Below are positions 45,067 to 52,754 of a DNA stretch of 64,000 bases, piece after piece; positions within the stretch are counted from its first letter, which is position 1, and each line of letters opens with the position of its first letter. The stretch comes from Alphaproteobacteria bacterium (GTDB lineage Bacteria > Pseudomonadota > Alphaproteobacteria > Paracaedibacterales > VGCI01): contig VGCI01000003.1 of the NCBI GenBank assembly GCA_016870095.1, forward strand, positions 78,607-142,606, read 5' to 3'. The notes beneath the pieces were generated by a model. That model was not told the DNA's origin, searched no databases, and worked only from the letters and a program-made list of their open reading frames with translations. Both the position numbers and the translations under genes were made by a program.

Positions 45067-48000
45067 ATGACTCCATTCGTTCATTTACGTGTTCATACCG
45101 CTTATTCCCTCGCAGAAGGGGCTATTAAGCTGAAAGATTTGGCCAAGCAGTGTCGCGAATATTCTATGCCTGCTGTGGCAATCACGGATACGGCTAATCT
45201 TTTTGGAGCTCTCGAGTTTTCCATGAGTTGCGCTGAAAATGGTATTCAACCTATTATTGGGTGCCAAATCCATTTGCGCCGATCTTCCCCATCTTCCCCC
45301 GGGAATCAAAAACCTATTGAGCCGGATCAACTTGTTTTGATTGCTCAAAATGAGGAGGGATATCGCAATCTTCTTCATTTGGTTAGTGATTCTTATTTAT
45401 CAGCGGCAAGTGGTGAATTACCTCAAATGACTCTTGAAGCTTTAAAAGAGCGAAGTGCGGGGTTAATAACTTTAACAGGGGGGCCAGCCGGTCCTATTGG
45501 TCGTTTGATTGCAGAAGGTCAACGAAGCGCTGCGGAAGAACTTCTTCTCACCTTAAAAGCCATTTTTCCCAATCATCTCTATGTTGAAATTATGCGACAT
45601 GGATTAGCAATTGAAGATCAAATTGAGCCTATACTGGTTGATTTAGCCTATCAACATGATCTTCCTTTGGTAGCGACCAATGAGGTTTTTTTTAAAGACC
45701 CCGATATGTATGAAGCGCACGACGCTCTTTTGTGTATTGCAGAAGGTAGATATTTGAATCAAGATGATCGCCGACGCGTAACGCCTCATCATTTTTTCAA
45801 GACTGCCCAAGAAATGATAGAGATATTTTCAGACTTGCCTGAAGCCATTCACAATACAGTGGTAATTGCAAAGCGCTGTTCCTATATGCCTATCCCGCGT
45901 CATCCTATTTTACCACCCTATCCGACGGAATCGGGGCGTTCTGAAGGTGAGGAGCTCCGCGATATGGCAGAAAAAGGCTTACACGGGCGCTTGGAGCGTC
46001 AAGTCTATGATTTGACAGATTCTGCTGAAACCAAAATCGAGAAGCGTCAAATTTACTTGGATCGCCTAAACTATGAAATCAATGTCATTGAGAAAATGGG
46101 ATTTCCCGGGTACTTCCTTGTCGTTGCAGATTTTATACAATGGGCAAAAAGTCAAGGTATACCTGTTGGTCCTGGTCGTGGGTCGGGTGCGGGCTCTTTG
46201 GTAGCGTGGGCTTTGACAATTACGGATATAGATCCCATTCGATTTGGATTATTGTTTGAGCGTTTCTTGAATCCAGAACGCGTTTCTATGCCTGACTTTG
46301 ATATCGATTTTTGCCAAGAACGTCGCGATGAAGTGATTACTTACGTTCGTCGCAAATATGGCGACGATCGTGTTGCTCACATTATCACTTTTGGAAAGAT
46401 GCAAGCCAAAATGGTTCTGCGAGACGTGGGACGTGTGCTCCAACTCCCCTATGGTCAGATTGACAGAATTTCTAAGCTTGTCCCCAACAATCCAGCCAAT
46501 CCAGTAACGCTAGAGCAAGCCCTGGAAATGGAACCTTTATTGCGAGAAGCTCGTGATACAGATCCCGCAGTTGCAACGATGATGGATATGGGCATGAAGC
46601 TGGAAGGTTTATATCGTCATGCTTCAACCCATGCTGCAGGCGTCGTGATCGGAGATCGTCCCTTAGCTGACTTGGTGCCGCTTTATAAAGATGAAGGATC
46701 TATATTGCCGGCAACTCAATTCAGCATGAAATATGTGGAATTAGCGGGTTTATTAAAATTCGACTTTTTGGGTTTAAAAACATTAACAATTATTGAAAAT
46801 TGTTGTCAGCGTCTGAAGACAAATGGAATTTCGATTGATATTGCTCAAATTCCCCTTGATGATCCTAAGACTTTTGAACTTCTTCAAAAGGTTGAAACAG
46901 TTGGTGTTTTCCAAGTTGAAGGTGCGGGCATGCGGGACGTGCTGCGCAAGCTTCGACCCGATCGCTTTGAAGACTTAATTGCTTTGGTCGCTCTTTATCG
47001 TCCAGGCCCTATGGATGATATCCCCCGATATCTGGCTTGTAAACATGGTGAAGAGAAAGTGACCTATCTTCACCCCCAATTGCAGTCCATACTGGAGCCA
47101 ACATATGGGGTTATGGTTTATCAAGAACAGGTTATGCAAATTGCTCAAGTTTTAGGTGGATATACATTGGGTGCCGCAGATCTATTGCGTCGAGCCATGG
47201 GAAAGAAAATTAAGTCAGAAATGAATGCCCAGCGTGCTCAGTTTGTTGAAGGGGCAATTAAAAATGGTTTGATACCTGATATTGCCAGTCAAATTTTTGA
47301 TCAAATGGCCAAGTTTGCCGGATATGGTTTTAACAAATCCCACTCTGCCCCTTATGCTCTATTGACTTATCAAACCGCCTATTTAAAAGCGAACCATCCT
47401 CTGGAATTTTTTGCAGCATCCATGACATATGATGTGAATAATACCGATAAACTAAATGTATTTCGTCAAGATATGGACCGATTAAAAATTGCTCTACTGC
47501 CCCCAGATATGAACGCTTCAGAAGTTTCGTTTTGTGTTGAAGGCAATGGCATTCGCTATGCATTAGCGGCTATTAAGGGTGTTGGTGAAGCGGGAATGAA
47601 AATAGTTCGACACGATCGTCAACTTCACGGACCTTTTAAAAGTTTGCTAGAATTTGCCCAGCGAATCGGCACGTGTGGAGCCAGTAGCGCGTTAAACAAG
47701 CGTCAATTGGAAAATCTTGTTTCCGCGGGAGCGTTCGATGGGTTAAATGCCAATCGCAAGCAAACCCATGGTGCAATTGAGAGCATGTTGAGACAGGCGG
47801 CACTTTCAGCTCAAGAAAAACAGAGCCAACAACATAGTTTGTTTGGATTTTCGGCATCTCAAAACCATCAAACTCTTTTGCTTCCTCCCATGAATGATTG
47901 GGGATCTCTTGAAAAATTACAGAATGAGTTTGACGCTCTCGGATTTTTCCTCTCCGCTCATCCTTTGGATATTTATGGATCTTCTCTGGCACGTCTCGGG

Positions 48001-48540
48001 GTGACGTCTAGCGAAACTGTAAAGGAAATGGGAGATGGGGCCACAGTAAAGTTGGCAGGAATTGTATTGGTCAAGCAAGAGCGAACTTCCAAAACCGGTC
48101 AAAAATTTGCTTTTGTAAAACTGTCTGATGCCCAAGGGGTTTTTGAAGTTGCCGTATTTTCAGAAGTCTACAGTCGCAGCCGGGATCTTTTAGAGCCAGG
48201 AAAGCCTTTGCTGGTGAGTGCAATTTTAAAGCAAGAATCGGAAGGTCCGGGAGGTGAGAGAAACTTTCGCTTAACAGGCCAGGGCGTGCAACTTTTAGAT
48301 GAAGCGATGCAATCTTTGACAAAAATGATTAGGGTGCGCGTGAATGAAACGGCAAAAGCCGATGATTTACGTCAAATATTTAAAAGTGCTCCTGCCGGTA
48401 ATGCCCGTGTGAGTATTGAAGTGATTTTTACCTCGACGCCGACCATTCAAATATTGTTGCCTGATAGTTACCACATCCATGCAGAAACACGCTCTCAGCT
48501 TTTGGGAGTGCCAGGCATTATAGGGATTGAGGATTTATAA
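45067..48540 (+). CDS. dnaE: DNA polymerase III subunit alpha
   Basis: 1157 aa. N-terminal PHP domain (FVHLRVHTAYSLAEGA), polymerase core (GRGSGAGSLVAWALTITDIDP, PDFDIDF) and a C-terminal OB fold. Confidence 0.97.
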   Translation: MTPFVHLRVHTAYSLAEGAIKLKDLAKQCREYSMPAVAITDTANLFGALEFSMSCAENGIQPIIGCQIHLRRSSPSSPGNQKPIEPDQLVLIAQNEEGYRNLLHLVSDSYLSAASGELPQMTLEALKERSAGLITLTGGPAGPIGRLIAEGQRSAAEELLLTLKAIFPNHLYVEIMRHGLAIEDQIEPILVDLAYQHDLPLVATNEVFFKDPDMYEAHDALLCIAEGRYLNQDDRRRVTPHHFFKTAQEMIEIFSDLPEAIHNTVVIAKRCSYMPIPRHPILPPYPTESGRSEGEELRDMAEKGLHGRLERQVYDLTDSAETKIEKRQIYLDRLNYEINVIEKMGFPGYFLVVADFIQWAKSQGIPVGPGRGSGAGSLVAWALTITDIDPIRFGLLFERFLNPERVSMPDFDIDFCQERRDEVITYVRRKYGDDRVAHIITFGKMQAKMVLRDVGRVLQLPYGQIDRISKLVPNNPANPVTLEQALEMEPLLREARDTDPAVATMMDMGMKLEGLYRHASTHAAGVVIGDRPLADLVPLYKDEGSILPATQFSMKYVELAGLLKFDFLGLKTLTIIENCCQRLKTNGISIDIAQIPLDDPKTFELLQKVETVGVFQVEGAGMRDVLRKLRPDRFEDLIALVALYRPGPMDDIPRYLACKHGEEKVTYLHPQLQSILEPTYGVMVYQEQVMQIAQVLGGYTLGAADLLRRAMGKKIKSEMNAQRAQFVEGAIKNGLIPDIASQIFDQMAKFAGYGFNKSHSAPYALLTYQTAYLKANHPLEFFAASMTYDVNNTDKLNVFRQDMDRLKIALLPPDMNASEVSFCVEGNGIRYALAAIKGVGEAGMKIVRHDRQLHGPFKSLLEFAQRIGTCGASSALNKRQLENLVSAGAFDGLNANRKQTHGAIESMLRQAALSAQEKQSQQHSLFGFSASQNHQTLLLPPMNDWGSLEKLQNEFDALGFFLSAHPLDIYGSSLARLGVTSSETVKEMGDGATVKLAGIVLVKQERTSKTGQKFAFVKLSDAQGVFEVAVFSEVYSRSRDLLEPGKPLLVSAILKQESEGPGGERNFRLTGQGVQLLDEAMQSLTKMIRVRVNETAKADDLRQIFKSAPAGNARVSIEVIFTSTPTIQILLPDSYHIHAETRSQLLGVPGIIGIEDL

Positions 48541-48544
48541 ATAT

Positions 48545-48570
48545 AAAAAACCCCTCTCGAAAGAGAGGGG
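48545..48570 (-). terminator. Rho-independent terminator of the WCA-protein gene
   Basis: Stem CCCCTCTC (48551..48558), loop GAAA, stem GAGAGGGG (48563..48570). On the minus strand it is followed by a T6 run (A-run 48545..48550 on plus). On the plus strand the trailing sequence CTCATTT is only weakly U-rich, so a role in dnaE termination is uncertain. Confidence 0.75.
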
Positions 48571-48597
48571 CTCATTTAATCTATAAAATTTTTATTT

Positions 48598-49827
48598 TTA
48601 TTTCCAATCATCATCATCAGTTTTAGGGGTTTCTTTTGATTCGATCTTTCCTATAATAGCACCCCTCCTTTGAGACAGGGCTTTAGATAATACGCTTTGC
48701 ACTGTATTAGAATTATCGCCTTGATGTGTCTCTTTACTGTCGGGATGAGGCACGGTATTATCTACTTTCTTAAGCACTTTTCCACCTTGAATTTGAGCTA
48801 ACAGGTTCCCACGAGGGGTAGGTTGAGTTAAAGGTTGCGAGGTAGCAGAATTTTTATCACTCGCGGGCGGTGGGGGGGCTGCAGGTATATCAGATGCCGT
48901 TGAGGGGGCATTGTTGGTCATGCTTTTTGCAGGAAGCTGAGTCGTTCTGAGTTTCTTTGCTTGGATCTGATCCAATAATGGATTGGGTGCCCGTGTTTCT
49001 TCCACCGGTGAGACAGGATCGGTGGAATGTTCAGTGGATGAAGAAGCAGGTATTGACTCATTGAGGGCTGTATTAGGAGGATTGTTTGGTGTTCGATGTT
49101 GCCCCAATTTGGGGGTAGAAGCATCACTTCCAAGGGCGGTTGATGAATGACCTGGAGCTGCGCGTACAAACCCTCCGTCTTTACCGGCAGGAGATAATGA
49201 CTTAGAATCTGAAGACGCTTCTACCGCATTAGACAGACCTAATCGCTCCTTTTCTTTGGTAGTTAGCACATTGAGAAGCTGCTTTTCTTTATCACTCAGC
49301 TTCGTTGGGTCGATACCCGCAGGCACCAAATTGGATGTTGGGACAACACTTCGTGAAGTGGGTGTCATTTCACAATTTTTCATCTGTTTCGCAACTAAAT
49401 CTGCTTTATCCGTCAAAGTTTTGCTTTTTTTCTGGTAGTCATTTAAATACTTTTTCCCACGGGAGTCCGTTGCTTTTTCAAACCGTGTAATATTCTCTTG
49501 GTTATCTTTAATTGCAGTCTCATAACCCATTTTTTCGTCTTCCAATATCTTTTGTAAATTTGCTTTGTTTGTTGGGTTTAAATTCTTACAAAATGCAAGA
49601 AGAGCATCTTTAATTTTTGTGTTATCGCAGTTTGCGGCACAATCATTCACATTTTTTTGAAAATCTTTAGAAGATCGATTTGCCAGCACTGTTTTTCCAC
49701 ATTTTAGCTTGCAAGTTGCTACATTCCACGCAGCTTCTGTTTTTTGTGTGCTTAAACATGTAAATGTTAAAGTTCCTAAAACTAAGCTTAAAATCGAAAT
49801 TGTATTGCGCATAGTTACTTTTTCCAT
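48598..49827 (-). CDS. Exported eukaryote-like actin nucleation-promoting-factor candidate: signal peptide, twin-CX3C domain, poly-Pro, 2x WH2, C helix and acidic/Trp tail
   Basis: ORF 48598..49845; in-frame Met at residues 1, 4, 7 and 12. I prefer Met7 (49827), which has AGGA 8 nt upstream. Residue numbers are those of the 415-aa track ORF. Signal: ISILSLVLGTLTFTCLSTQKTEA. WH2-1: NPLLDQIQAKKLRTT (aa 288-302). PAAPPPPA: aa 321-328. WH2-2: GNLLAQIQGGKVLKKVD (aa 346-362). C-like helix: VQSVLSKALSQRRGAII. Terminus: TDDDDWK. Confidence 0.7.
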   Translation of the reverse strand: MEKVTMRNTISILSLVLGTLTFTCLSTQKTEAAWNVATCKLKCGKTVLANRSSKDFQKNVNDCAANCDNTKIKDALLAFCKNLNPTNKANLQKILEDEKMGYETAIKDNQENITRFEKATDSRGKKYLNDYQKKSKTLTDKADLVAKQMKNCEMTPTSRSVVPTSNLVPAGIDPTKLSDKEKQLLNVLTTKEKERLGLSNAVEASSDSKSLSPAGKDGGFVRAAPGHSSTALGSDASTPKLGQHRTPNNPPNTALNESIPASSSTEHSTDPVSPVEETRAPNPLLDQIQAKKLRTTQLPAKSMTNNAPSTASDIPAAPPPPASDKNSATSQPLTQPTPRGNLLAQIQGGKVLKKVDNTVPHPDSKETHQGDNSNTVQSVLSKALSQRRGAIIGKIESKETPKTDDDDWK

Positions 49828-50012
49828 TGTTTTCATCCTTATCATCTATTATGTCGCCTATAAATTATTATGAGCTAAGAGAATTAAAAAAATCTTAACT
49901 ATTTTAAATCTCTATTTTTTGGATATTTCATAAGGTTCTGAAAGGTATTCAATTCGCAAATAAACTTTTTCAAGTTTAGGAGCTGTGCCTGTTTGGAGAG
50001 CAACTTATTTAT

Positions 50013-50038
50013 AAAAAAAACCCCTCCGAAGGGAGGGG
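50013..50038 (-). terminator. Rho-independent terminator of the second WH2-protein gene
   Basis: Stem CCCCTCC (50021..50027), loop GAAG, stem GGAGGGG (50032..50038), followed on the minus strand by a T8 run (50013..50020). Near-identical design to the 48545..48570 terminator. Confidence 0.75.
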
Positions 50039-50063
50039 TATCTTACATAATTTAAATCTTAGT

Positions 50064-51005
50064 TTAATTACCGTTAGCGGCTGCGGCAGCAGCGGCTTCT
50101 CTTTTTGCTTTCATGGCGAGCGCAGCTTTCTGTATTTCGTTGATACTTGACCCTTGATCGGTGTTCGTTGCTGGTTTAGGTGTACCATTTGCAGATGGAG
50201 TGGGTAGAGAACCCAATCTGCGAGTAGGTGAAGTAGTATCGGGCGCTCCTACAGGATTTGCTGCAACTGGAGAAGTTGTTGCCTTAACATCTGTCTCATT
50301 TTTTTTAAGTTCTCTACCTTTTCGAATGTCAGCTAACAAATCTGCAGGTTGAGTTTTGTTTGCTGGAGAAGGTGCTGTTGCAGGTACTGCTGCTTTTGCA
50401 GAAGCTGGAGGTGGTGGCGGTGGCGGAGCAGGCGGCACATTAGATGGTGCAGTATTCACATCCGCTGGTGACGGAGCTGGTTCAGGCCTAAACATTGGTG
50501 TTGGGACTGGAGGTACAGCTGGAGCTCCGGCCGGAGCTGTTATTGCGGGAGTGGCAACATCCAATGCAACAGGGCATTTCTTCATTTGATCCGCAACGGC
50601 TTTAATCTTAGTGTCTAATAATTTATCTTTACTCGTATATTCTTTTGTGAGTTTTTTCCCTCTATAGTCTGATGCATTTTTAAATTGATCTATTTTACTT
50701 TGATTTGCTTTTTTTTCTTCTTCATAACCGAGTTTTTGTTTACTTAAATCATCATTTAATTTTTTCTTATCTACCAACTTATCGCAGTTAGCGAGAAGAA
50801 CATCCTTAATGATCGCATTATCACAATTTCTAGCACACTCATTCAGAGTTTTCGTCTTGTTTCCTACCACGTACTTATTACATCTTACTTTGCACTCTGC
50901 AGGGCTCCAAGCCACTGTATTCTGAGTGCCTAGACTCATAATTGTTAAAGTTCCCATAATTAAGCTAAGTGTGGAAACTCTGTTTTTGGAAATTAATTTT
51001 TGCAT
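50064..51005 (-). CDS. Exported WH2 / poly-proline protein, paralog of 48598..49827 lacking the acidic/Trp tail
   Basis: Track ORF 50064..51044. The ATG at 51005 (MQKLISKNRVSTLSLIMGTL...) has AAAGGA upstream. It shares the twin-CX3C domain with its neighbour. PPAPPPPPPP at aa 204-213 and WH2 ADLLADIRKGRELKKNE at aa 233-249, numbered on the 326-aa ORF. It ends ...EIQKAALAMKAKREAAAAAAANGN. Confidence 0.7.
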   Translation of the reverse strand: MQKLISKNRVSTLSLIMGTLTIMSLGTQNTVAWSPAECKVRCNKYVVGNKTKTLNECARNCDNAIIKDVLLANCDKLVDKKKLNDDLSKQKLGYEEEKKANQSKIDQFKNASDYRGKKLTKEYTSKDKLLDTKIKAVADQMKKCPVALDVATPAITAPAGAPAVPPVPTPMFRPEPAPSPADVNTAPSNVPPAPPPPPPPASAKAAVPATAPSPANKTQPADLLADIRKGRELKKNETDVKATTSPVAANPVGAPDTTSPTRRLGSLPTPSANGTPKPATNTDQGSSINEIQKAALAMKAKREAAAAAAANGN

Positions 51006-51221
51006 TTTTTTATCCTTTAAATTATATAAACAATACAAATTCATTGTAATTATTAAATAATTAAAAAAATATTAAAAATATATATTAAAAAAATTTTTGA
51101 AATTAACAATTATTAGAATGTCTATAAATTAATATTATTTTAAGATTTTTCATGGAACATAGAATTATAGGTTAGATTTACTAAAAGTTTACAAACTCTC
51201 AAAATAGTTTGGCAAAATAAA

Positions 51222-52754
51222 ATGCAAAAAATTCTGAACCAGCTCGAAGAAAAACGCAAAGCTTGTTATTTAGGGGGCGGCCAGGAGCGTATTGATCGTC
51301 AACATGGTAAGGGAAAATTGACCGCACGCGAACGTTTAGATATTCTTTTAGATGAGGGATCGTTTGAAGAGTGGGGGCTTTTTGTTGAGCATCGATCTCA
51401 AGATTTTGGGTTGGATAAACTAACCATTCCGGGAGACGGAGTGGTGACTGGTTATGGCACTATTAATGGCAGGCTGGTGTTCGTATTTTCCCAAGACTTT
51501 ACCGTTTTTGGTGGCTCATTAGGCGAAGCCCACGCCGAAAAAATTGCCAAAATTATGGACAAGGCCATACAAGTGGGAGCTCCCCTTATTGGGTTAAACG
51601 ATTCTGGAGGGGCGCGCATTCAAGAAGGTGTCGATTCTCTTGCAGGTTATGCAGAAGTTTTTCAACGAAATGTTTTGGCCTCTGGCGTGATCCCCCAACT
51701 ATCTTTAATTATGGGGCCGTGCGCAGGGGGTGCTGTCTATTCACCCGCGATGACAGATTTTATTTTTATGGTAAAACAGACAGCCTACATGTTTGTGACA
51801 GGTCCCGATGTTGTCAAAACTGTAACTAACGAGACCGTTAGCGCAGAAGATTTAGGAGGTGCTAAAGTTCATACGACCCAATCCGGCGTTGCCGATTTGG
51901 CGCCTCCAAATGATATAGATGCTCTTATGCAAGCGCGTCGATTGATCGATTTTTTGCCGCTTTCAAATCGGGAATCTCCGCCCCTTCGTAAAACGTCAGA
52001 TGCGCCAAATCGTCTCGATCCGGCACTGGATACCTTGATTCCCCCTAATCCAAATCTTCCCTATGACATGAGGGAGCTCATCCATAGCGTGCTTGATGAT
52101 GGAGATTTCTTTGAAATGCAGCCTGAATTTGCGCCCAATATTCTCATTGGATTTGGTCGCATGGATGGTCGATCGGTAGGTATTGTTGCTAATCAGCCTA
52201 TGGTTTTAGCAGGCTGTTTGGATATTAATGCATCTCGAAAGGCGGCTCGATTCGTTCGGTTTTGCGATTGTTTTAACATTCCCTTGCTAACCTTCGTCGA
52301 TGTGCCGGGATTCTTACCCGGTATTGAACAGGAGCAGGGCGGTATCATTAAACACGGGGCAAAATTATTATTTGCTTTTGCTGAAGCAACGGTTCCTAAA
52401 GTCACACTTATTACACGGAAGGCTTACGGGGGGGCTTATGATGTTATGAGCTCAAAGCATATTCGCGCAGATGTCAATTTCGCGTGGCCAACGTCAGAAA
52501 TTGCCGTTATGGGCCCTAAGGGTGCTGTAGAGATTATTTTTCGTGGGGATTTAAGTTCGCCTGAAAGCATGGCGTGCCGCGAGGAAGAATACCGAGATAA
52601 GTTTGCAAATCCCTTGATTGCAGCCCATCGTGGATTTATTGATGATATTATTCAACCACGAGAAACACGATTGCGAATGTGCCGTTCCTTAGACATGTTG
52701 GCGAATAAAACACTTGTCAATCCGTCAAAGAAGCACGACAATATCCCATTATGA
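51222..52754 (+). CDS. pccB: Propionyl-CoA carboxylase beta chain (carboxyltransferase)
   Basis: 510 aa. N-terminus [33 protein letters not shown] is typical of PccB and the methylmalonyl-CoA carboxyltransferase 12S subunit. Partnered with pccA downstream, and mce is in the same window. Confidence 0.88.

Follow-up and report, generated by a model that had tools for sequence, protein, structure and literature searches.

A probable long-standing effector slot beside dnaE and pccB in Candidatus Finniella encodes duplicated candidate WASP mimics

Introduction

How did two genes for exported, proline-rich proteins with actin-binding-type motifs come to lie between the housekeeping genes dnaE and pccB of an intracellular alphaproteobacterium, and what might they do there? 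The pair, here called gene A (next to dnaE) and gene B (next to pccB), lies in a stretch of 64,000 nucleotides (the window; positions 78,607 to 142,606 of VGCI01000003.1, assembly GCA_016870095.1) on contig 3 of a genome (G000) of 1.80 Mb that is 99% complete and contains 40% guanine plus cytosine (GC). We placed the organism in the genus Candidatus Finniella (Paracaedibacteraceae, Holosporales), whose described members inhabit the cytoplasm of cercozoan and ciliate hosts (PMC11909080). An earlier model-made reading of the DNA letters (the sequence-only reading) had proposed that the two genes form a duplicated gene-plus-terminator cassette, probably acquired and then diversified. We compared the locus across seven Finniella genomes (G000-G006) and two closer metagenomic relatives (L027 and L028). 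We conclude that the locus is probably an old effector slot kept throughout the genus rather than a recently acquired island, and that it contains duplicated, diverging and tail-swapping genes for candidate mimics of WASP.

Results

Two paralogous genes and their terminators

The two genes lie head-to-tail on the minus strand (open reading frames 48598-49845 and 50064-51044), between plus-strand flanks whose identity as dnaE and pccB was established by Pfam, as the sequence-only reading had described. Their likely true starts are 49827 (MEKVT...) for A and 51005 (MQKLI...) for B, each 7-8 nt after an AAGGA Shine-Dalgarno sequence, and these starts agree with the forms found in the protein collection: P0001, the 409-aa form of A, and P0005, a 313-aa form of B that is 96% identical in its N-terminal part. 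The likeness of the N-terminal halves and the divergence of the C-terminal halves, both seen by the earlier reading, were confirmed: across 157 residues of their N-terminal parts, A and B share 45% identity (E-value 5e-37), and their C-terminal parts give no significant alignment.

To place the duplication, a maximum-likelihood tree was built from the N-terminal 175 residues of 25 members of the N-domain family to which both proteins belong. The A clade (this genome, L027 and L028) and the B clade (this genome, P0005 and L028) are sisters with support of 100/100, separated by branches of 0.49 and 0.72, and the single-copy genes of G003, G006 and G002 lie outside both. This sisterhood dates the duplication to within the present sub-lineage. 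In G001, too, the two family genes pair with each other (100/99), and the simplest reading of the tree would be that tandem duplication took place twice and independently in the slot, once in the G001 lineage and once in the ancestor of the present species group.

The terminators were duplicated along with the genes. Across the 1.80-Mb genome, only three hairpins take the form CCCCTC...GAGGGG followed by at least four T, and the terminators of A and B account for two of them; we therefore reject a chance origin of the shared design. The 3' regions of the two genes align with a score of 36, compared to 14.4 ± 2.5 in shuffled sequences (reached by 0 of 1000). Hairpins of this type also follow family genes in G003, G006, L027 and G001 (there after each of the three genes), and the hairpin is thus part of the ancestral gene unit. 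Homologous coding sequences and terminators, in the same orientation, adjacent and belonging to sister clades, bear out the earlier proposal of a duplicated and later diversified gene-plus-terminator unit. The terminator of A lies 8 nt past the dnaE stop and, at this distance, may also end dnaE transcription.

Upstream, A and B share a 17-nt TTAA(G/T)ATTTTTTTAATT motif at about -70 together with the Shine-Dalgarno context, at identical offsets, and homology of the two promoters is plausible but unproven. The sequence-only reading had further described an extremely AT-rich spacer before each gene. This holds for the spacer between B and pccB (51045-51221), which at 14.1% GC ranks lowest among the genome's 451 intergenic spacers of 100-400 bp, but not for the spacer before A (49846-50012), which at 27.5% GC falls at the 21st percentile and is ordinary. 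The spacer at 51045-51221 holds overlapping A/T palindromes (51058-51105) and may be a regulatory or strongly bent region governing B, pccB or both.

Slot occupancy and composition

None of the seven Finniella genomes examined has an empty slot: each carries one to three exported proline-rich genes there, and five of them have the N-domain family in it. The slot adjoins dnaE and/or pccB in six genomes; in G005 it adjoins pccB, away from dnaE. A single 511-aa gene lies between dnaE and pccB in G003, three genes (235, 491 and 404 aa) fill the slot in G001, and a single 440-aa gene is convergent with dnaE in G002, where pccB is missing. At least one gene is present in G006, in which the slot runs into the contig end. 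G004 encodes an exported 415-aa protein divergent from pccB, with a poly-proline run, WH2, connector and an ...EEWED end; it was missed by our first search because its N-domain differs. An exported 276-aa protein rich in cysteine and proline stands beside pccB in G005, with dnaE about 5.5 kb off on the other side. The B-A tandem itself is present in L028 (pccB, B ortholog, A ortholog, dnaE), and L027 shows a partial B, A and then dnaE. The flanks are well conserved across the genus: the C-terminal 399 aa of dnaE are 73-76% identical to dnaE in five other Finniella genomes, and pccB is 83-89% identical to the other Finniella copies.

We then looked for an unoccupied version of the junction. A search of 40 relatives recovered pccB from Finniella and from a single further family (f7) only; four f7 genomes were inspected, and in none of them does dnaE occur in the roughly 7 kb upstream of pccB. 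No empty dnaE-pccB junction was found among the relatives searched, and the adjacency was not seen outside the genus; hence there is no reference state by which an "insert" could be defined. The sequence-only reading had held that conserved synteny across distant relatives would mark an old core locus. The genus-wide occupancy comes near to that description, yet the conservation is genus-deep only and does not extend to distant relatives.

The composition of the locus, which the earlier reading had proposed to compare with its surroundings, is typical of the genome. Both genes have a GC fraction of 0.412, against a mean of 0.415 for genes of the genome, and the z-scores of their synonymous codon choice under genome usage are -0.5 (A) and +0.2 (B), against a mean of -0.13 (sd 1.64) in a sample of 150 genome genes. 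Within each gene, GC rises from about 32% in the N-terminal half to 47-50% in the C-terminal half, because the former is rich in Lys, Asn and Asp and the latter in Pro and Ala. No integrase or transposase reading frame was found in 44-54 kb of the window, no transfer RNA (tRNA) gene in 40-58 kb, and no direct repeats at the flanks other than short AT-rich matches attributable to chance, in agreement with the sequence-only reading, which had seen no integrase, insertion sequence or direct repeat. The locus thus has none of the marks of an island, be they mobility genes, tRNA or repeat borders, atypical composition, or empty sites among the seven Finniella genomes and two metagenomic relatives. 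With host-like codons and GC, a slot filled in 7 of 7 genomes and the tandem present in both L027 and L028, the suggestion of a probably acquired foreign insert was not upheld.

Other features were recorded at the slot. In G002 (L023, G002:C100:3000-8000), the effector gene is directly adjoined by the 2TM-domain gene whose counterpart in the window comes after pccB; a search of the whole G002 genome (84% complete) recovered no pccB, and propionyl-CoA carboxylase may have been lost there. Exported, Cys-rich proteins of a second, small family occur in the dnaE/pccB slot of G001 (L022:395-1102) and G005 (L026:547-1377), with 31% identity over 78 aa (E 3e-6). Its G005 member carries a poly-proline run, a helix resembling the connector (...ALLKRRGALAES...) and an acidic end without Trp.

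Recombination and fast evolution

Part of the locus has nevertheless moved between lineages. A tract of 735 bp is about 96.6% identical between this genome and L028 (96-98% in sliding windows), compared to 82-89% for the dnaE and pccB flanks, and it contains 110 bp of identical non-coding DNA. Synonymous divergence (dS) from L028 is 0.047 in the C-terminal half of B, about twenty times below the flanks (1.13 for dnaE and 0.83 for pccB). The N-domains of A (1.29) and B (0.87) have a dS equal to that of the flanks, and the two genes have therefore co-diverged with the chromosome. L027 and L028 are 96-99% identical in dnaE and in most of the N-domain of A. Over the C-terminal half of B and the adjoining spacer, L028 instead matches this genome (92-99%), and its identity to L027 falls to about 50-60%. 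Since L028 resembles this genome over the tract, and not its close relative L027, the C-terminal module has been exchanged between lineages, and recently so. The breakpoints fall at the boundary of the N-domain and the proline-rich region of B and at the start of A. Judged from these alignments, the mobile portion is the 735-bp tract and not the whole locus.

In the hypervariable C-terminal half of A, identity to L028 is 55-66%, with insertions and deletions, and even L027 and L028 share only 61-83%. The ratio of nonsynonymous to synonymous divergence (dN/dS) of this half is 0.40, compared to 0.03-0.04 in the flanks.

WH2-connector-acidic tails

The protein encoded by gene A consists of a signal peptide, a Cys-rich helical N-domain, a disordered linker, a proline-rich stretch, a WH2-like motif followed by a WH2 motif, a connector helix and an acidic DDDDW tail. 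By sequence, it has all the parts of a WASP-type WH2-connector-acidic (WCA) tail: the WH2, a connector helix with a conserved Arg, and an acidic tail with Trp. The WH2 contains a helix predicted by AlphaFold at residues 343-352 and aligns to the WH2 of Spire and N-WASP. The earlier reading had assigned a WH2 to both genes, and for A this stands, with a score of 27.0 bits above the Pfam PF02205 cut-off of 23.1 bits; the motif of B, at 15.4 bits, lies below it. The WH2-like motif of A, NPLLDQIQAKKLRTT, has no separate Pfam score and is weak in the family profile. Outside the N-domain, the protein is predicted to be disordered except for the WH2 helix and a second one at residues 378-396.

To compare the tails with known proteins, we built a profile from an alignment (A4) of seven tails of the N-domain family (74 positions), in which one Leu, one Arg and one Trp are invariant. 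Positions 2-72 match residues 428-496 of N-WASP (6uhc_H) with an E-value of 9.7e-8, collinearly from the WH2 to the acidic region, and a second N-WASP structure (2vcp_D) is matched at 2.1e-8. The connector of A, VLSKALSQRRGAI, which carries the Arg invariant in the seven tails, is aligned by the profile to ALMEVMQKRSKAI of N-WASP. The family profile was required for this result: a PDB search with the tail of A alone gave one weak match to a Spire WH2.

Gene B encodes a signal peptide and an N-domain as in A, followed by a long poly-proline run, one WH2 and an Ala-rich end. This end, AAAAAAANGN, has neither acidic residues nor Trp, and between the WH2 and the terminus there is only an Ala/Lys-rich helix, whose equivalence to a connector is uncertain. 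From these arrangements, gene A is a probable Arp2/3 activator. The product of B would probably bind actin and profilin but be unable to activate Arp2/3, and is likely a modulator or a sub-functionalised partner of A.

WCA-type tails were also found on three further exported N-domains, unrelated to one another, in G004 (Finniella), G060 (family f7) and G047 (family f8). The genes in G060 (L042:1015-1740) and G047 (L043:1495-2766) encode exported proteins with WH2, connector and acidic-Trp ends (…SSDDWGDD and …SDSDWD, respectively) behind unrelated N-regions. The upstream neighbour of the G047 gene encodes another Ala/Pro-rich exported protein. In G005, a minus-strand gene about 3.5 kb downstream of dnaE (L026:12946-14454) encodes a 502-aa multi-pass membrane protein ending in ...EDSGSEDDGNW; this acidic, Trp-tipped tail resembles the Arp2/3-binding "A" element, without a visible WH2.

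The N-domain family and export

In the predicted signal peptides of both proteins, a basic n-region is followed by a hydrophobic core and a site of the A-x-A type, which in the family reads ...AEA and is cleaved before (A/G)W. A lipoprotein reading of the "TFTC" in gene A was rejected: this Cys is not conserved in the family, whereas the AEA-type signal-peptidase I site is. The mature N-domain is about 120 aa long with four invariant cysteines in two C-x3-C pairs; that of A has six cysteines, including these four. AlphaFold models it as all-helical, with a long helical hairpin and a predicted local distance difference test score of 86-98. It has no relatives in Pfam or NCBIfam, and its model has no match in the PDB at E<0.001, only generic helical hairpins.

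The sequence-only reading had proposed a search for the distribution of this domain. A profile search showed the family to be tiny: 1.84 billion proteins yielded only 23 cluster representatives at E <= 0.001, and in nearly all of them the domain begins about 30 residues from the N-terminus, directly after the signal peptide. No member was found in the 34 genomes searched, which span nine other families of the order. Most of the other members end in a WCA tail with W, sometimes F; G001_404 and P0024 are tail-less. In P0015 (689 aa), the N-domain is joined to a C-terminal region of about 500 aa that has no proline-rich/WH2 tail and matches an ecdysteroid kinase-like (EcKL/APH-type) domain weakly (E 0.03, below the cut-off). 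This protein suggests that the N-domain may be a carrier module for differing effector domains.

The genome encodes two secretins. One lies within a Tad/Cpa-type pilus cluster (G000:C2:274230-279981) comprising a tetratricopeptide repeat protein, a prepilin peptidase-like protein, a CpaB-like protein, the secretin, and CpaD-like and CpaE-like proteins; the other is an orphan (G000:C4:33140-34825). The features of the locus are collected in Table 1.

Table 1. Positions of genes, motifs and non-coding elements at the dnaE-pccB locus, in window coordinates
Feature	Position	Strand	Basis or remark
dnaE (DNA polymerase III alpha), left flank	45067..48540	+	Pfam DNA_pol3_alpha, PHP, finger, HHH_6 and OB domains; convergent with gene A
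Intrinsic terminator of gene A	48548..48573	-	GAGCCCCTCTC-TTTC-GAGAGGGGTTT + T-run; terminator scan; homologous to terminator of B
Gene A, 409 aa	48598..49827 (reading frame open to 49845)	-	Candidate Arp2/3 activator
Acidic tail with tryptophan (TDDDDWK), A element of gene A	48601..48621	-	Translation; profile reaches N-WASP acidic region
Connector (C) helix of gene A, NTVQSVLSKALSQRRGAIIGK	48643..48708	-	Family profile aligns to N-WASP C region (6uhc_H, 2vcp_D); AlphaFold helix 378-396
WH2 motif of gene A, RGNLLAQIQGGKVLKKV	48757..48816	-	Pfam PF02205, 27.0 bits, residues 344-363
Short proline-rich stretch of gene A (IPAAPPPPA)	48859..48888	-	Translation; conserved Pro columns in alignment A2
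Weak first WH2-like motif of gene A, NPLLDQIQAKKLRTT	48940..48984	-	Seen in sequence
N-domain of gene A	49366..49734	-	Mature residues about 38-160 (415-aa numbering); alignments A2, A3
Spacer B-to-A with presumed promoter of A	49828..50012	-	TAAGATTTTTTTAATT at -70; AAGGA Shine-Dalgarno
Recombination tract, 735 bp	49846..50579	.	A-upstream spacer, terminator of B and C-terminal half of gene B
Intrinsic terminator of gene B	50020..50039	-	ACCCCTCC-CTTC-GGAGGGGT + T8; terminator scan
Gene B, 313 aa	50064..51005 (reading frame open to 51044)	-	Paralog of gene A
WH2 motif of gene B, ADLLADIRKGRELKK	50301..50342	-	Pfam PF02205, 15.4 bits, under cut-off 23.1; aligned with family WH2 column
Poly-proline run of gene B (PPAPPPPPPPA)	50400..50440	-	Translation; candidate profilin-binding site
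N-domain of gene B	50568..50915	-	Alignment A3; family hidden Markov model E 2e-50
Divergent spacer gene B / pccB	51006..51221	.	Promoter-like hexamers
pccB (propionyl-CoA carboxylase beta), right flank	51222..52754	+	Pfam Carboxyl_trans, E 7e-197

Discussion

Our results describe a slot that is filled throughout the genus, at which the genes duplicate and change their tails. Under the explanation that we favour, an ancestral unit made of the promoter motif, a ribosome-binding site, the coding sequence and the CCCCTC hairpin would have been tandem-duplicated in the ancestor of the sub-lineage. Both copies would have retained the signal peptide and the disulfide-rich helical N-domain while their disordered C-terminal halves diverged. 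The slot would change in three ways, namely in copy number (1-3 genes), by independent duplication elsewhere, and by homologous recombination that swaps C-terminal modules between lineages, with the conserved N-domain and the 5' end of the adjacent gene as its anchors.

What the proteins do, and how they leave the cell, we infer from their parts. The product of gene A would be exported by Sec, form the disulfides of its N-domain in the periplasm, and then pass beyond the inner membrane to reach the host cytosol or the bacterial surface, which is the weakest link of the proposed mechanism. Its tail would bind profilin-actin, G-actin and Arp2/3 and so nucleate branched actin, as WASP-family proteins and RickA do. 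The product of gene B, which has no end for contact with Arp2/3, would bind actin and profilin but nucleate no branches, and might act as a helper or as a brake.

Several points weigh against this explanation. Arp2/3-bound N-WASP peptides that comprise the connector and acidic regions only match the tail profile at E-values of 0.08-0.19, which are not significant alone; the additional WH2 of gene A is weak, and its proline-rich stretch is short. An export route past Sec was not found: a type VI secretion system (TssC) is present, and no VirB4 was found in the genome. By local alignment, the overall similarity of the regions upstream of A and B is not significant (117 of 1000 shuffles reach the score). 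The sisterhood of A and B could also reflect gene conversion between older paralogs, and an ancient insertion in the ancestor of Finniella would be compatible with the missing empty junction.

Could the pair nonetheless be a foreign two-gene cassette, which entered between dnaE and pccB by horizontal transfer in this genome or a recent ancestor and then duplicated? The genes run antiparallel to both flanks, their borders are AT-rich and include a spacer with a lower GC content than any other of its size class in the genome, searches of other families of the order recovered no member of the N-domain family, and part of the locus has demonstrably moved between lineages. Moreover, the WASP-like modules are of eukaryotic type, so that transfer or convergence must have occurred at their origin. 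Yet host-like codon usage and GC, the lack of integrase, insertion sequence, tRNA and direct repeats, the similar genes in the slot of all seven Finniella genomes, and an N-domain dS equal to that of the flanks, that is, co-divergence with the chromosome, make such an origin very unlikely, and as a recent event it is largely refuted. An alternative course for the duplication has it occurring in the genus ancestor or earlier, with the N-terminal halves since homogenised by gene conversion and one copy lost from the single-copy species. Sister paralogs in both the G000 group and G001, a signature of independent duplication or of conversion, would fit this course, as would the recombination demonstrably active at the locus and the combination of a conserved N-domain with a divergent C-terminal half, expected of conversion tracts limited to the 5' part. 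However, the N-domains of A and B are only 45% identical and the branches of their clades are long, and any conversion would therefore be ancient rather than ongoing; in addition, the interval is fully assembled in G003 and G002 and contains just one gene in each, and an old duplication thus needs several losses besides conversion. We regard it as unlikely.

The remaining alternative concerns function: the proteins might be periplasmic or envelope proteins rather than effectors of host actin, the WH2-like and acidic-Trp strings of their low-complexity, proline-rich tails being accidental or serving some function in the bacterium. Their Sec signal is classical, no signal for translocation into a host is recognisable in them, no type IV secretion ATPase was found in the genome, the WH2 of gene B is below the Pfam cut-off, and most of the C-terminal half is predicted to be disordered. 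Against this, the order WH2, connector (Arg), acidic (Trp) is kept in seven divergent members whose surrounding sequences are not, and the tail matches the N-WASP VCA as one collinear stretch. A like tail is also found on three unrelated N-domains (G004, G060 and G047) in the same order of obligate intracellular bacteria, and the organism resides in the cytoplasm of a eukaryotic host (PMC11909080). We consider a purely bacterial role quite unlikely. An old, genus-wide slot for duplicated WASP mimics remains the probable explanation.

Bacterial mimics of the WASP family are known from few pathogens and symbionts, namely RickA, Wbm0076, BimA and the ActA-like logic. The tail of gene A shares with the VCA of WASP, N-WASP and WAVE the order of its elements: a proline-rich region, one or two WH2, an amphipathic connector with Arg, and an acidic tail with Trp. 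Unlike these proteins, that of gene A has a Sec signal and an unrelated disulfide-rich N-domain in place of WH1/GBD, is much shorter, and has a paralog (B) without the acidic-Trp end. RickA of Rickettsia is reported to activate Arp2/3 by mimicking WASP-family proteins (Gouin et al. 2004, as cited in PMC11077975). Like gene A, it belongs to an alphaproteobacterial intracellular bacterium and places a proline-rich/WH2/connector/acidic module at the C-terminus; by this analogy, the product of gene A would very likely act in the manner of RickA. A Sec signal is missing from RickA, in which a G-actin-binding domain lies within a large N-terminal repeat region of about 95 aa (PMC11077975), whereas the Finniella genes encode a cleavable signal peptide and another N-domain (helical, with twin C-x3-C) and form tandem paralogs in a variable slot. 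Membership of A and B in the RickA family was rejected: RickA's description sets them apart, and no NCBIfam model matches. Wbm0076, from the Wolbachia of Brugia malayi, is a WAS(p)-family candidate effector that disturbs eukaryotic actin dynamics (PMC9980815, PMC6160203). It too is an endosymbiont protein with a WASP-family-like actin module; it differs in being a proposed substrate of type IV secretion, for which no VirB4 was found here.

Tandem-duplicated, fast-evolving effector loci are a general pattern in intracellular bacteria. The locus fits this pattern in its lineage-specific tandem copies, each with a terminator, in the raised dN/dS of the host-interacting half, in its variable copy number and in its module exchange; it differs in lying between two housekeeping genes rather than on an island or plasmid, and in having its breakpoint at the boundary of the N-domain and the proline-rich tail. 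A bacterial WASP mimic and a tandemly duplicated effector are thus known kinds. New are the Sec signal combined with a new N-domain, the pair of a full and a tail-less gene, and the module swap at a domain boundary. In the literature that could be searched, no paper was found that links WH2 or actin nucleation to Finniella, other Paracaedibacteraceae or Holosporales.

A bolder account, which we hold only tentatively, would join these observations: the slot as a modular effector workshop, A and B as a two-component actin machine, and Sec-dependent WASP mimicry independent of RickA. The disulfide-stapled N-domain would then be a common export or anchoring module to which tails (a full WCA, WH2 only, or kinase-like in one relative) are joined at the domain boundary. 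In the pair, A would switch on Arp2/3, and the tail-less B, with its poly-proline and WH2, would feed or restrain filament growth. If this account were true, protist endosymbionts of the Holosporales would use a Sec-dependent WASP mimicry that arose independently of RickA.

For annotation, our findings mean that this locus should not be called an acquired island. It shows how effectors evolve in a reduced genome, in the neighbourhood of core genes, by repeated duplication of a gene with its terminator, fast divergence of the tails and tail swapping, and A and B offer a natural pair of a full WCA protein and its tail-less paralog. The Holosporales are a large order of obligate protist symbionts, and the presence there of an Arp2/3-activating-type tail on at least four unrelated exported N-domains suggests that the hijacking of actin is widespread among them.

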